Origin: Yuukianura sp. NJ FZ-2021
Lineage: Eukaryota
Direction of reading: 5' to 3'
Length of the DNA: 64,000 bases
Assembly (NCBI GenBank): GCA_046563655.1
Contig: CM102283.1
Location: forward strand, 8,246,001 to 8,310,000
Numbering within the stretch: the first letter of the stretch is position 1; each line of letters starts with the position of its first letter. Position numbers and translations under genes: made by a program. The notes under the pieces were generated by a model, which did not search any database, was not told where the DNA came from, and saw only the letters and a list, made by a program, of their open reading frames with translations. Positions 14,480-31,010 of the stretch are shown one piece after another.

Positions 14480-16850
14480 ATGAACGTCCCCGTAACGTAC
14501 ATAACGGAAGCTAGGACGGTATGGAGGCTCCTCAACGGTGTCATTTGTGTGTACAAACCAGTTGGAATGACCAGTCGTCGACTACTGGACGAAGTTCGGA
14601 ACAAACTTGCACTGGGACTGAACGCAATGAACGTTCGTGAACCAGAAACTATAGTTGAGTTCAAACGTATCGAGGGGACTACTGTCAAGGATTCAGCGAT
14701 AAGCGAAGTATACTCCGAAGTATCGACAGCTGATGTCGAATATTCGAATGTTCCAAGCGTTGCTGTCCAGCAGAGGAAGCGGAGACCGCCGATGTCCAAT
14801 TTAGAAAAGACTTTCAAGCATGAGCTGATTGGTGAACTGGAAGATGGGCCAGACAAGATCCGGATCTTAAAACGTGCAAATTATGCTGACCATACTCTTG
14901 TGGTTGGTCCTCGTTATCAGGAACAAGACATCAGGGTGATGGATATCACTAGACTCGGGCCGAATACCTCGGGACTTTCCGGTAATTGTTAATTAGTTAT
15001 CGTTCTGGTTCATTCCTTACCTTGAATACTGTTCTAAATGTCACTTTTGGTATGAATTTTGCAGTTTTGGGTATCAATCGTGGGATCCGAACTGTTTATA
15101 ACTGCAGAAACTTAAAATGGCTTCGGAATTATGTCATCTCCGGTAAATTTGGAATCGCCACCAACACGGCATTCCATACTGGACGGATAATCGACAAGTC
15201 AACGTTTCACAGAATTCAGAAACCAATGGTGGACAGATTCCTGGCGACAACTCAAGCTTCTCATCAAAAGAACATGTTTATGTAAGAAAATTACCACATT
15301 AGAGTTAGACTAATCGCGAGTTCATTAAGTTAGTTCATCGTTATTTATTGCAAGTTAAATGTTAATTACCGTTGAAAACATTTCAGAGCTTCCGGTATTC
15401 CGCTAAAGAGTGAACGAGCTTATGAAATCGCAAGTCAGGGATTACCACGGCCAGGCAACGTATCAACGCCGCTCATCTACTCACTTAAGTGCACCAACTT
15501 CGATCCACCAAACTTTGACATTGGTAAGTTATACATTTTCTAATTAACGACAATTAACTAGTTTGCAAATTACTTATATAACAGAGCCAATCGCTTCTTA
15601 ACCCTTTAACGCAAGAGATCAAATCCTCAAATTTATTCTCATGATTAAGCACAATCAAAAGAGTCGTACTTCAGTAGATTACCTCTCATCGTTAACTGAA
15701 TTTTCAAAGGCGATTGACGAGTAATAATTTAGCAAGGTAGAGTAATTGTTGAATTGTTGTTAGATTAGGCTTGATTGTTGTGTTGTTTTGTTGGGTGAGA
15801 TTCATTCTGGAGGTTGCTCTTCTCCGCCATCGGCCGCTGCCTGAGATGGAGAGACGGTCGGAGGCTTGTCACCGTCGGCATTGTCTTCACAGACACAAGG
15901 ACTCTGGCCACATTTTGGACAGACATCCTTCTTCTTTCCGCTACACTTTCCAAGGCAGGAACCCATTGTTCAAGTAGCCAAGGGCTCTGACGACTGGCGC
16001 ACGAACGAGAGCAGGAACCAAACTCTCCTGAAACAAACAGAAACAGGGAAACGATTAGCGTTGAGCTAAGTATTACAACACTGAAGACTCTGCCTAATGA
16101 GTTAGAAATGACAAAATGAGGGAAAGAGTGTCAAGGTCCAGTCCAATTTTCCATTAATTAGCCCCAAAACTGGTCTCTGTGGTTGTTGCGGATGGATTCG
16201 CGGTCCGTACACTGTTAGTCCATTATCAGTTACTTATGTAATTAACTTACCCAACTGTGAGAGGTATGGTCTCGTAGTCAGCTGATGTGGATTGACCTAG
16301 GGTGACGATTAGTTGACCCAGTAGGAGTAGAGAGAGACAGACGTCCGTCTTCGTGAGAGGCAAAAAAGCGACTGACAAAGAAATGGGAGAGAGAATGACG
16401 TGGCGAGTTCAATAACCTCCGCGCGCCTCTTTTCCCTGTTTTTGAATTTTCAAACAGTGCCGCGCTTGGTTTCGTTTCCTTGACAATAAGTTTATATTAA
16501 ATTTAATTCATATAATTCAACTAATTTCTATAATTTGTATAGAAATGGCCGTGATCAATGAAAATGAAGACTTTTTGATGGGATTCGTCCATGACATGGG
16601 AGTACGTCTACGATCGGCAGCAGTTTGTACCAAAATTCGGTGTATCAAGTATGGACCATTTACGCTGGACTTCGCCCTGCTCCCAAAACATTATTCTCCG
16701 GAAAACTTCGTTAACAATATGATTAAGACAAACGAGATCTTGAAGACGGTTGACCTTAAAGTTAAGGATCCGATTATCATGGATGACAGCGCTGACAGGT
16801 CACGATCACCAGCGAGGGAGCACGAAAAGCAAACAGTTGAATACGTTTAG
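14480..16850 (+). CDS. TRUB2: TruB pseudouridine synthase family member 2 (mitochondrial); exons 14480-14981, 15065-15281, 15387-15523, 16543-16850
   Basis: LNGVICVYKPVG, ADHTLVVGPRY, YVISGKFGIATNT, QASHQK, AYEIASQGLPRP, VHDMGVRLRSAAVCTKIRCIKYGPF. Confidence 0.92.
15802..15966 (-). CDS. Putative 54-aa Cys-rich, N-acylated microprotein nested in TRUB2 intron 3
   Basis: MGSCLGKCSGKKKDVCPKCGQSPCVCEDNADGDKPPTVSPSQAAADGGEEQPPE*. ACAATGG start context, 5'UTR intron with donor GTAAGT at 16250 and acceptor TTTCAG at 16028, downstream AATAAA near 15632-15637. Confidence 0.7.
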   Translation of the reverse strand: MGSCLGKCSGKKKDVCPKCGQSPCVCEDNADGDKPPTVSPSQAAADGGEEQPPE

Positions 16851-17971: not shown

Positions 17972-20567
17972 ATGGCTATCACTACGGCGAAACTCCAGAA
18001 GGCTATTTCAGGTATGTTTTGTAGTTTCGGTTTCGATTTTGTAAGGTATCTAATACATTGTTCTTACATCCTCATGCAAGACTAAAACATTTGAAAATTA
18101 GCAGTTAAGTCTCATATAGCTGAATCAGGAATCTTATTGGATGGATGAAGCATGCATAAATTCTAACAATTGAATGAATCTCAGCAGGAGCAGCCAGTCC
18201 CTGTCCTTGGCTTCATTTTTAGTTTGAGAGGAATGCGGTAATTTCACGTTTAGTCCTGCGGTAGTCTAGTCTCGTGAAATTCTTTAAATCGGTATCTCCG
18301 TATCTGTATTACTACATTTTCATTTTTAAGCTTCAGTACTCATCATTAGTGTGTATAATTTCGAGCCAGATTGCAGCAGACCACAAACGAAGGGTAGTAC
18401 TCGATACGTTTGCGTTATTTCTGAGTCTGACGTACGCTTACGGCATACTAATTTGCACGCGACGCCGGCAATTTAAAGTTGATTTTATACTCCGCCGCCT
18501 CCATCGTGTAGCCGCAACTTACCCCCTAACAACGTACGGTCTCTATACTGGTTGCTTCTGCTACTGACACTTTGATTGTTAAAGGTTACTAAAGGTGTTA
18601 AAGGTTATGCTAAATTCTTAAAAGTTATAAAATAGTTTGGTAAATAGGATGTCATCATAGAATAAGTTTATATTGTTTGAACAGTTTAGTTTAACATTTC
18701 TTCCTGATTATTTACAGCTTTCATACGAAGTGTTCCACTTTATTGTCACCCTGACCCTGGTCCACTCAAAATGACGCTCCTAACTCCTGATCCACCGCCT
18801 TCTGATTCCAAACTTGGATGTTCTTGTGTTGTACAAGCTATGACAATGTTCAGATCTCCTTTACTTGCTACCTTACGGTGCCATTCAACATCGGATGACT
18901 ATTGGTTACCTTAATTTTCAATTGTTTTGTCCGTTGGTGCGTTGGGGAAGATGATGCTACGGCTTGGCTTGACCGTGTTGCCAAATCGGGAATAGGGAGA
19001 GATCTTTTGAGAACGAAGAAGAAGCAGGGGGGAACGACCGTCCATAATCCAAGCTACATTTCTACCGTAGTACAAGCTAACTTCCATAACGTATCACAGG
19101 ATAGACTTCAAATGCTCTCTGTACATAGGCTCATAGCCTAACTTTTCCCTGCTTCTTCCCCAATCCAATTCCATTGTCCATTTGTTTGCCCTGGCTTTGA
19201 CTACTTCTAACAGCAAAATTCCAAAGTTGTACTACACAACACATCGGAGAAAGGAGCGTCGAATTTTGGTAGCGTCCTTTTCCCCACTTGGTTACCCGAC
19301 TTCATCTTCCTTTACTTGCTAAAAACAGTCCACAAAAACACACTTCTACATTGGGTAATTCATATTATTGCGTACTTTTCAGTTACTGTCAAAAGTTAAA
19401 CTAGATTGGTCCAGGTTGGGATTACGAAGGTAATGGGGAAATTAGTGCGTATTTTAGGGTTGAGGCATAGCCGATCTTAACCGAGCTGGACGTCGGCTTG
19501 CTTTGCTTAGACAGGAGTAGAATACTTGCTGAAGTCAGCATTAATTAATACTTCTTAATTCCATTAATTGATATGATTGTTAAGTTAAGAGGATCGTAGT
19601 TAGTATCAGGTGAAAATGTAGTTAGAAGGGGCAAGGGGGGAAGAAATTACATATTGAGTGTAGTGAGGTTCGGGCGGGCTCGAGTCGTTCCGAACGGCAC
19701 GGAAAAGTTTCAAAAGTTTTGTAATAATTTTGATCTTTTTTGTTTCAGAAATTCTTGACGAGTCAAATCTTGACGAAATTACGACAAAGAAAGTTCGTGA
19801 GCAACTAGAAACAAAGTTAGGAGTGAACTTAGCCGACAGGTACTAATCAATATATGAATTCTTAACTAAAAGTCGAGTGGTGAAGTGTAATTGATGTACT
19901 AATTGAATTACTTTTTAGACGAAAGGAAGTAGACAAATTGATCATGGATACTTTGGAAGAAAAGCGAACAGCATCTGAAGAAGAAGAGGAGGAGGAGGAA
20001 AGTGAGGAAGAAGAGAAGAAGCCAGCGAAACGAGGTCGTAAGGCTGCTGCGGCCAAGAATGGCAGCGATTCTGGAAGTGAAGAGGACTTTGAACCTGCTG
20101 CTAAGAAGGGACGAAAACCTGCTGTGAGTTACAGTTTTTTAAAAATTTCAATTTTGTAAACGTTTTTAATACGTTTTTTATCTGTTAGGCAAAGGGGAAG
20201 GCCAAGAAAGCCGCTGGTGGAGGTGGAGGCCGAAAGGCTGGCACTGGTTACACAAAAGAATGCAAGTTGAGTGCTGAGCTGGCAGCAGTTATGGGTCAAC
20301 CGACAATGGCTCGACATGAAGTCGTCAAACAAATGTGGAAACTTATCAAGGAGAAAAATCTCTATGATCCAAAGAACAAGCAGTTTGCCATTTGCAATGC
20401 TGAATTGCTTCCAGTTTTTGGTAAGTTGGCGACTAAACGACCGAAAAACGATTTTTTTCTGTTTTCGGACTTTGATGTTAACTTTTATTCTGAAAATTGT
20501 AGGAGTGAAGCGATTCCGGACTTTTGGAATGATGAAGTATCTAAAAACTCACTTTCTCGCAGACTAA
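17972..20567 (+). CDS. DEK-C plus SWIB/MDM2 domain protein (UAF30/Spp27/TRI1-like); exons 17972-18011, 19750-~19840, ~19919-20123, ~20190-20421, 20503-20567
   Basis: MAITTAKLQKAISEILDESNLDEITTKKVREQLETKLGVNLADRRKEVDKLIM (DEK-C), acidic/basic linker, LSAELAAVMGQPTMARHEVVKQMWKLIKEKNLYDPKNKQFAICNAELLPVFGVKRFRTFGMMKYLKTHF (SWIB). Confidence 0.9.
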
Positions 20568-29310: not shown

Positions 29311-30560
29311 TTCGGCCAAAAATTTCTGATTTTTTTTTTGTAAAAAGAGTTTTGATTGGTCGGTTTGAGTCAAGCGAACAAGAAATACTTAATCAATTGT
29401 CAAAACTTTCTCCAGCATCGGCAGCAGCATAACATCACCTTCCAGTGCTCCATCATTTCTCACTTAACGTGTTCGACGTTTTGGAAATTCATGTTTGCAT
29501 GTGCTGACGCTTCCAAAAATATTTCATGCTCTCATGACCTTTCCGCTTCTACCGGCTCAAAGTTTCCAAGAATTTTGAAAATTTCAAAAAAGAAGAGAGA
29601 AAGTGAAAATTTTTCTATTCTTCTTTCCTCATTCAAAATTCTACACAATGGTTCTATTATCCCCAACTTTTTAACTGGTTCTGGTTAAATTTAAGTGAGT
29701 TTACGTCGGTACTTGATTCATATCGACAAAAAATTCTAAAAGATCATGTTTCGAAATTTTTATTTGTATTTTTTTGGTGTTTTGAGCATTTTTTTTTCTG
29801 TTTTGGTATCAAGACTTGGTCCGTGTCTGATACGAAGGCTGTAATGTGAGAGGCATATGGTTCCAATTCCCATCCATCGAAAAACTTTGTAGTTACTCCC
29901 GCCAGGCCGATCTCAAAATGCTTCAACCATCGTAGCCTTTCCTTTCGTTTTTGTGAAATTTGCACGAACATGTTGCGATGAGTTTGGAAGGTTTTGGTCT
30001 CAGTTCTGAGAAGGCATTGGACGAAGCAGGATGTTTGATCGAAGTCCTTCCTAAACCATCTTTGTGGGAACTCAAAGTGTATTGTTCCCCCTCATCTTAT
30101 CTCAAACTGACTCGACCAGTTCGAAACAACTTTTAAAAAAAAGTAAACTAGTTGAAAACAGTGACTGAAGACACTAAAAAGTAAGTTTTGTGCTCATTTT
30201 TCATTGGTTTGGATTAAGGCCAAAGGTCGCACTCATCAATCATTGCAGAACGATGGTGTTACGCTGTACAAGTCTTTCCAGAAAAAGTGTTTTGAGACAG
30301 AAGAAAGACTACAATTCTCATCGCCAACCGTGTGCTGCCAGTGGTAGATGATATTTGAACTTCATGGTTGACCTAACCAATTTAGGCTGTCCAATTAACA
30401 CTTAGATTTTCAGAAGTTGCTAAAAAGAGGAAAGGTCAACGACCTTTGACCCCCAAATACTTCTGACTCCAGGAAGCGCGTGGATGCAGAAAAAGACGCT
30501 CGTGGTTCTGGAAGGCACCTTCTGGAAGTTACAGTTATTACAAAAGTTAAGGTAACAAAA

Positions 30561-31010
30561 ATTTTCAGATTTCAGAGTTTGAGAAACTTTCAGGTTTCAG
30601 ATTTTGAGAAATTTTCGGATTTCAGAGTTTGAGAAATTTCCAGATTTCAGATTGTGAAAAATTTTCTGATCTTTAGGTTTTGAGAGTTTTTAAATTTTAA
30701 AACATATTGAGATTTCAGACTATAGTTGTCAAATATGGAGGTGATTAGGGATGTCGGATTTTGCGGGTTTCAGAATTTAACAATTTTGGGATTTTATTTG
30801 GATTTCACTATTTTCGGATTTTCAAGCTGTCAGAATTTGAGTAGTTTTCAGTATTTCAGATGCTGTGGGATTTCGGATTTTAGATTTACGAGTTGTCAGA
30901 ATTTAAAATTTTTTTGGGTTTGGAGAATACAAGCTGAAGATTTTAGTTTTTCAGATTTTGAAATATTTTGAGACCTCAAGATTTTGGGACATTTTGAGAT
31001 TTAGACTGTG
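30561..31010. repeat. Degenerate tandem repeat (unit about 28-30 bp, TTTTCAGATTTCAGAGTTTGAGAAA-like)
   Basis: Clear copies at 30561-30690 that decay toward 31010. Confidence 0.65.

Follow-up and report, generated by a model that had tools for sequence, protein, structure and literature searches.

A 64,000-nucleotide (nt) stretch of DNA from the springtail Yuukianura sp. NJ FZ-2021 (GenBank assembly GCA_046563655.1, contig CM102283.1, positions 8,246,001 to 8,310,000 of the forward strand), referred to here as the window, was analysed for a small spliced unit that appears to lie antisense within the third intron of a TRUB2-like pseudouridine synthase gene. The features of both are listed in Table 1, and all positions given below are those of the window. 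When exon 1 of the host gene was used as a query, only two of 462 candidates were found at an expect value (E) of 0.001 or less, both of them insect proteins named "pseudouridylate synthase TRUB2, mitochondrial" with 28-33% identity; by this sequence similarity the host gene is a TRUB2 orthologue. Its introns, as read from the splice junctions in the window, are 83, 105 and 1019 nt long, in agreement with an earlier note on this DNA, which had put intron 3 at about 1 kb and the others at about 80-105 nt. In a tblastn comparison of two insect TRUB2 proteins with the window, the consecutive residues 222 and 223 of protein P0007 were found to flank the long intron, and because they align directly on either side of it, intron 3 holds no missing TRUB2 residues. 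The nested unit, with a length of approximately 760 nt, makes up most of the excess of intron 3 over the 83- and 105-nt introns. The sequence of intron 3 is single-copy in the window, and an origin of the unit from a transposon or repeat was rejected, as no signature was seen in the window and the intron matched only itself there.

The earlier note had described, on the minus strand of this intron, a non-coding exon ending at 16251 with a GTAAGT donor, an acceptor at 16028, and an ATG-initiated open reading frame (ORF) of 54 amino acids (aa) at 15966..15802, placed in an ACAATGG context and followed by an AATAAA. Each of these was found where it had been described, and the translation of the ORF was identical to the peptide quoted. 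The acceptor, GTTTCCCTGTTTCTGTTTGTTTCAG, ends at 16028 on the minus strand, placing the start of exon 2 at 16027. A signal absent from that list is a candidate core promoter, consisting of an initiator (Inr)-like sequence and a downstream promoter element (DPE)-like sequence. PMC1538597 gives the Drosophila consensus sequences as TCAKTY for the Inr and RGWYVT for the DPE, with G(A/T)CG as the most trusted DPE core. After splicing, the leader would be 184 nt long and free of ATG, compared with an ATG frequency of 0.016 per nt in the window, and the proposed intron has two. A TGA is present two codons 5' of ATG 15966, and because of it the 54-aa frame cannot extend in the 5' direction. Both proposed exons have a guanine plus cytosine (GC) content of 0.49-0.53, which falls to 0.40 in the proposed intron; the TRUB2 exons have 0.43-0.48. 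The nested transcript probably ends near 15612 on the minus strand. In our view, the best explanation of this arrangement is a two-exon, unannotated protein-coding gene with a 54-residue product, lying antisense in TRUB2 intron 3, and we regard this explanation as reasonably probable.

Table 1. Features of the nested minus-strand unit and of its host gene, in window positions.
Feature	Positions	Strand	Basis or remark
Inr-like TCAGTC, A+1 at 16373	16370..16375	-	consensus TCAKTY; overlaps acceptor-like pyrimidine tract and CAG
DPE-like GGACGT, exactly +28..+33 from Inr A+1	16341..16346	-	contains G(A/T)CG core
Proposed non-coding exon 1, 123 nt, without ATG	16251..16373	-	GC 0.49-0.51
Proposed intron, 223 nt: GTAAGT start at 16250, CTAAT at -31, long pyrimidine tract, CAG end, two ATGs	16028..16250	-	GC dips to 0.40
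Proposed exon 2, 5' untranslated part, 61 nt, without ATG	15967..16027	-	in-frame TGA 15972-15970
Predicted coding sequence, 54 codons and TGA, peptide MGSCLGKCSGKKKDVCPKCGQSPCVCEDNADGDKPPTVSPSQAAADGGEEQPPE	15802..15966	-	ORF translation, codon scoring
Predicted Cys4 knuckle CPKCGQSPCVC, residues 16-26	15889..15921	-	motif comparison
AATAAA polyadenylation signal, 165 nt past stop, then T/G-rich stretch	15632..15637	-	sequence reading
TRUB2-like pseudouridine synthase host gene, four coding exons	14480..16850	+	protein search, tblastn, junction reading
Host TRUB2 coding exons	14480-14981, 15065-15281, 15387-15523, 16543-16850	+	
Host TRUB2 intron 3, 1019 nt	15524..16542	+	

The 5' end of the proposed nested gene is ambiguous, because the Inr overlaps an acceptor-like site, a pyrimidine tract and CAG from which the acceptor filter flags an exon start at 16371. 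The 121-nt segment 16371-16251 could then be an internal exon with its acceptor CAG at 16372, in which case the gene would start upstream, beyond TRUB2 exon 4, with a transcript, and perhaps a protein, unlike those of the two-exon model. This arrangement draws support from position 16371, as the minus strand of the region has just one other exon start with a strong acceptor, and from a frame that is open across the entire 121-nt segment. However, that open frame reaches the TGA ahead of the ATG and so cannot add to the 54-aa protein; between 16.4 and 20 kb, none of the minus-strand ATG ORFs is placed among the first 25 by the codon score described below; and the DPE is at exactly the Inr distance given in Table 1. 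We consider an internal exon to be very unlikely. TGACGTGG, an ACGT-core basic leucine zipper (bZIP)-type site which we take to be of the unfolded-protein-response element type, is located on the plus strand at 16396-16403, within the proposed promoter, at -23 to -30 relative to the minus-strand start.

The length of the ORF alone is unremarkable, as the window contains 191 ATG ORFs of 40-120 aa. The single signals are likewise frequent: per kb per strand, GTAAGT is found 0.35 times, AATAAA 0.62 times (which makes it weak as a lone signal) and TCAKTY 1.73 times. These frequencies lend some weight to the idea that the signals fell together by chance in a GC-richer part of a long intron, with no transcript made and with intron 3 long for other reasons; so does the way in which the site came to attention, having been picked from 64 kb by the earlier note with the tests designed afterwards. 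The signals were therefore counted as an ordered arrangement, consisting of GTAAGT, a strong acceptor, a first ATG with a purine at -3, an ORF of 50 aa or more, and AATAAA within 400 nt. This arrangement occurred twice in the real window. First-order Markov shuffles, 300 in number, contained it 0.14 times on average, with one or more occurrences in 11% of them, and in 0 of 300 when an Inr and DPE were also required within 300 nt upstream, although the arrangement was defined after the locus had been inspected, so that these figures are rough and their significance is somewhat overstated. Chance also accords poorly with the codon score of the ORF (see below), which was reached by 11 of 20000 shuffles, with the exon/intron-shaped GC profile together with a consensus Cys4 motif, and with the lack of any repeat or transposon signature within the window. 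A fortuitous arrangement is thus judged improbable.

The coding potential of the ORF was assessed using a codon log-odds table trained on 11 long exon-like frames from the window, a basis of only 2513 codons. The frame of the ORF scored 0.317 bits per codon, compared with 0.157 or less in the other five frames and 0.07-0.28 in the training exons, and by this score the ORF ranked second among the 191 ATG ORFs of 40-120 aa. Mononucleotide shuffles reached the ORF score in 11 of 20000 cases (9 of the 1672 that stayed open), and first-order Markov resamples in 81 of 20000 (75 of 2995 open). In a leave-one-out analysis, 36 of 41 exon chunks scored highest in their true frame out of six. Of 1005 further 162-nt chunks taken from the window, five matched both the score and the margin of the ORF. 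The coding signal, given by a small model, is frame-specific and goes beyond composition.

It is also conceivable that the unit nested in TRUB2 yields an antisense non-coding RNA, with a real promoter and real splice sites but with an ORF that is untranslated or functionless; such an RNA might modulate transcription or splicing of the host. Promoter and splice signals are silent on translation, no protein homologue was found, and ORFs of 54-codon length are common in the window, all of which would suit a non-coding RNA. The codon usage, being frame-specific and above that of composition-matched shuffles, points the other way. The same is true of ATG 15966, which is the first ATG after an ATG-free leader and is in good context, and of the Cys cluster, which equals a recurrent Cys4 consensus and is unlikely to have come from untranslated sequence. 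We hold the non-coding RNA to be an unlikely explanation. A structured RNA was rejected separately, as the only match was to one long non-coding RNA at 18.2 bits, compared with a gathering score of 80.

The Cys4 consensus was obtained from matches to the peptide encoded by the proposed gene. Using phmmer, six matches were found at E <= 0.001, of which four were large proteins (1380-5409 aa, E 1.7e-17 to 2.2e-4) and two were small metagenome proteins. The small proteins (P0004 and P0005) contain three copies each of VCPKCG..PC.C and were matched at E 6e-5 and 1.7e-4, values that benefit from the repetition of the motif within these proteins. All four large proteins were set aside; P0003 and P0006, the two that were scanned, carry bacterial immunoglobulin-like surface repeats. 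A scan of metagenome contigs with the peptide gave 31 loci. Eighteen of these encode proteins resembling the R subunits of type I restriction enzymes, as flagged by a crude regular expression, and several unflagged loci show R-subunit-like flanks as well; 22 of the 31 proteins carry three copies of the motif. In L008, the one R subunit scanned, the motif copies are located between Helicase_C and EcoEI_R_C, in a linker without a Pfam model. As a single copy, the motif is also found at the C-termini of MazG-like proteins and in small phage-like proteins, among them one of 68 aa encoded on a compact, phage-like contig, and it was seen as well in an HD-domain protein and a DUF499 protein. Scanning prokaryote genomes added 16 further motif loci from many phyla. 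Where inspected, the loci from both scans were bacterial or phage-like, and the Cys motif was the sole match.

Forty-six repeats were gathered from the 31 metagenome loci using a regular expression that set the spacing only, leaving out repeats selected by the search pattern. C1, C4, P8, C9 and C11 were present in 46 of 46 repeats and G5 in 45 of 46, and the modal residues at other positions were P2 (23), V3 (with K second), Q6 (26), V/I10 (30) and E12 (27). The stretch VCPKCGQSPCVCE of the springtail peptide has the invariant residues, and at every repeat position the modal or second-commonest residue. It shares with the R-subunit repeat, C-P-x-C-G-Q-x-P-C-V/I-C, the C-x2-C-x4-C-x-C spacing and the extent of the likeness, from the V before the first Cys to the E after the last. 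The two differ in their setting, in that the peptide has a single copy within 54 aa encoded by a eukaryotic spliced gene, whereas the R subunits usually have three copies in tandem within a large enzyme. The family of the peptide had not been recognised in the earlier note; this still applies to the protein as a whole, for which there is no homologue, but no longer to the Cys motif, which has relatives at the motif level.

The possibility of a transferred R-subunit gene fragment was ruled out, as the similarity ends at the motif. When 11 R-subunit-type proteins were compared with the window by tblastn, the motif region alone was matched, and DNA identity over the motif was 23-27 of 33 positions, which is the level given by the shared amino acids alone. 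Because there is no surrounding similarity and the DNA identity is only at this level, the link between the peptide and the prokaryotic proteins would appear to be a shared mini-module, resulting from convergence or from a very old capture and not from recent transfer. One phage-like counterpart is of similar layout: the 68-aa protein at L017:482-688 (plus strand) has a basic N-terminus, one C..CGQSPCVC knuckle and an acidic disordered tail, as does the springtail peptide. Tandem Cys4 repeats were seen in EcoEI-type bacterial type I restriction R subunits (L001-L031, L032-L047), with L008:5001-5234 as an example. A string search of the literature for four literal motif or peptide strings found none of them, and none of the papers listed for HsdR together with zinc, cysteine and CxxC seemed relevant, as judged by title and the start of the abstract. 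In type I restriction enzymes the Cys4 module is widespread, is without a Pfam model, and is absent as literal strings from the literature searched.

The best match of the peptide in the PDB was the N-terminus of M. jannaschii aIF1 (4mo0), over residues 14-32, with E = 1.5; this value indicates a resemblance to the aIF1 knuckle, with no homology shown. A PDB search with P0005 gave generic CPxCG ribbons only, at E >= 0.08, and no structure of the Cys4 module. In PMC6237735, an N-terminal CX2CGLPX3C(phi)C is reported for 64% of 744 archaeal aIF1 sequences, and aIF1 is stated to retain 0.8 Zn per molecule after dialysis against ethylenediaminetetraacetic acid. Both the aIF1 knuckle and the peptide begin with CX2CG, have a Pro in the spacer and close with C-(V/I)-C; in contrast, the spacer of the peptide has four residues compared with six, the GLP triplet is absent from the peptide, and the aIF1 knuckle belongs to a translation factor. 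By this analogy, the peptide most likely contains one Zn(Cys)4 site. The earlier suggestion that CPKCGQSPCVC may bind a metal ion gains support from both the prokaryotic Cys4 consensus and the aIF1 zinc knuckle, and is kept as a prediction. More broadly, the nested, spliced, antisense anatomy of a small gene was borne out at the level of sequence signals, while the redox- or metal-sensing role that the earlier note attached to it is speculation.

Metallothioneins were also considered as relatives of the peptide. In these proteins Cys makes up about 25-30% of the residues, in repeated C-x-C, C-C and C-x-x-C clusters. With six Cys in 54 residues (11%), the peptide has too few, and it has no Pfam match at E <= 1, so that a metallothionein was rejected.

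The N-terminus of the peptide, MGSCLGK, fits the N-myristoylation pattern G-{EDRKHPFYW}-x(2)-[STAGCN]-{P}, the relaxed form quoted in PMC1885993, when the translated ORF is searched by regular expression; the pattern is permissive. Cys4, Cys8, Lys7 and Lys11-13 are all near the N-terminus. The earlier note had proposed a Src homology 4 (SH4)-type anchor, and this arrangement agrees with the sequence as a prediction, since the Met-Gly start fits the PROSITE-type pattern and Cys and a Lys cluster are nearby. Met-Gly, a nearby Cys and a basic cluster are shared with the SH4 dual-acylation anchors of Src-family kinases, G-alpha proteins and kinetoplastid PPEF/HASPB (PMC1885993). The peptide differs from these anchors in having its Cys at position 4 and not 3, and in a remainder of 40 residues that is not a kinase or G-protein; its acylation is predicted only. 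In PMC1885993, both acylations were lost when Gly2 was mutated, and mutation of Cys3 alone shifted the localisation. Because the peptide is without a hydrophobic segment, a secreted or integral membrane product is unlikely.

Taken together, the proposed gene could work as follows. Transcription would start from a TATA-less Inr and DPE core promoter with A+1 at 16373, and splicing would remove a 223-nt intron bearing the only upstream ATGs, so that scanning ribosomes would reach ATG 15966 as the first and make the 54-residue protein. After removal of Met1, Gly2 would be N-myristoylated, and Cys4, and perhaps Cys8, would then be S-palmitoylated, with Lys7 and Lys11-13 adding electrostatic affinity for the membrane. 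The protein would thereby be held at a membrane, on its cytosolic side. A single Zn(Cys)4 knuckle, of the type C-P-x-C-G ... P-C-phi-C, would be built from Cys16, Cys19, Cys24 and Cys26, and residues 27-54 would form an acidic, proline-rich disordered tail. From the proposed lipid anchor, zinc knuckle and disordered tail, the product is therefore pictured as an adaptor with one knuckle, tethered to a membrane and acting on a protein or nucleic-acid partner.

A more specific form of this proposal is put forward tentatively and is, in our opinion, doubtful. It holds that the product is a lineage-restricted, lipid-anchored microprotein of a new family, the sole folded element of which is a Cys4 knuckle of prokaryotic defence or phage type, acquired by ancient transfer or by convergence, and that it serves as a zinc- or redox-sensitive membrane-tethered adaptor. 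Under the new-family proposal this would be, to our knowledge, the first eukaryotic home of the Cys4 module. Genes nested in introns are frequent in arthropods, amounting to approximately 6% of D. melanogaster genes, and 2mit, in an intron of Drosophila tim2, is likewise a complete transcription unit that runs antisense to its host inside a single intron (PMC3786989). Compared with nested genes of the 2mit type, the springtail unit is much smaller and is without known relatives.

In addition to the ambiguous 5' end, the late choice of arrangement, the small codon model, the permissive myristoylation pattern and the boosted motif E-values mentioned above, several results weigh against a functional protein-coding gene at this locus. 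The nested gene is proposed here from signals in the DNA sequence. For the whole peptide, an exhaustive phmmer search of 1.84 billion representative proteins found no full-length homologue, the exact peptide was absent from a collection of 15 billion proteins, and a word-indexed search gave no match among proteins of 29-95 aa. No Pfam family was found for the peptide at E <= 1, and the best score in the ESM Atlas, 0.78, was too low to be given weight. The large phmmer matches were rejected as relatives; P0001, the one that was aligned, matches a 14-residue stretch of the tail many times over. Half of the 54-aa peptide is of low complexity. The Inr and DPE composite alone is not enriched, as the window has three where 1.32 are expected, and three are reached in 11 of 100 shuffles; one of the three is that located 123 nt upstream of the 16251 donor. 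A single-sequence AlphaFold2 model was poor, with a mean predicted local distance difference test score of 61.7 (approximately 72 over residues 11-30), no regular secondary structure and no metal.

If the gene is real, it would be a clean case in which annotation overlooked a functional microprotein because it is below length cut-offs and inside an intron, and its product would combine a lipid anchor, one zinc knuckle and an acidic tail. If it is not expressed, it is a well-shaped false positive and nothing else. Soil springtails are models for metal tolerance, and for this reason a membrane-bound Cys and zinc peptide would be of interest in these animals. A literature search found no publication pairing springtails with small open reading frames.

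Several further observations were made on the host gene and elsewhere in the window. The host protein contains the motif LGPNTSGLSGVLG, encoded on the plus strand by 14957-14981 and 15065-15085, at which two insect TRUB2 proteins have LGPNTSGV and LGKHTSGV. The latter, from P0008, is paired in an alignment with the human TRUB1 (8jfx) stretch LDSAARGV, whose Asp we take to be the TruB catalytic nucleophile. This position is occupied by Gly in P0008 and, as judged from the tblastn alignment, also in the window protein. Because the Asp presumed to be the nucleophile is replaced by Gly, the host TRUB2-like enzyme may be inactive or may employ another residue.

The highest codon score among the 191 short ORFs was that of a 71-aa ATG ORF at 19944-20159 on the plus strand, which is probably an exon of another gene. 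Two Inr and DPE composites are present in the window in addition to that of the nested unit, and one of these is within an apparent coding exon. The other, TCAGTT ... GGATGT at 30000-30034 on the plus strand, is followed approximately 180 nt downstream by AAAAAGTAAGT, a GTAAGT donor at about 30183. The layout of a short non-coding first exon is thus seen again, making this site a candidate start of another gene. Just 3' of its candidate first intron, at 30555-30680 on the plus strand, is a short tandem array with units of approximately 30 nt that are variants of TTTCAGATTTCAGAGTTTGAGAAA.

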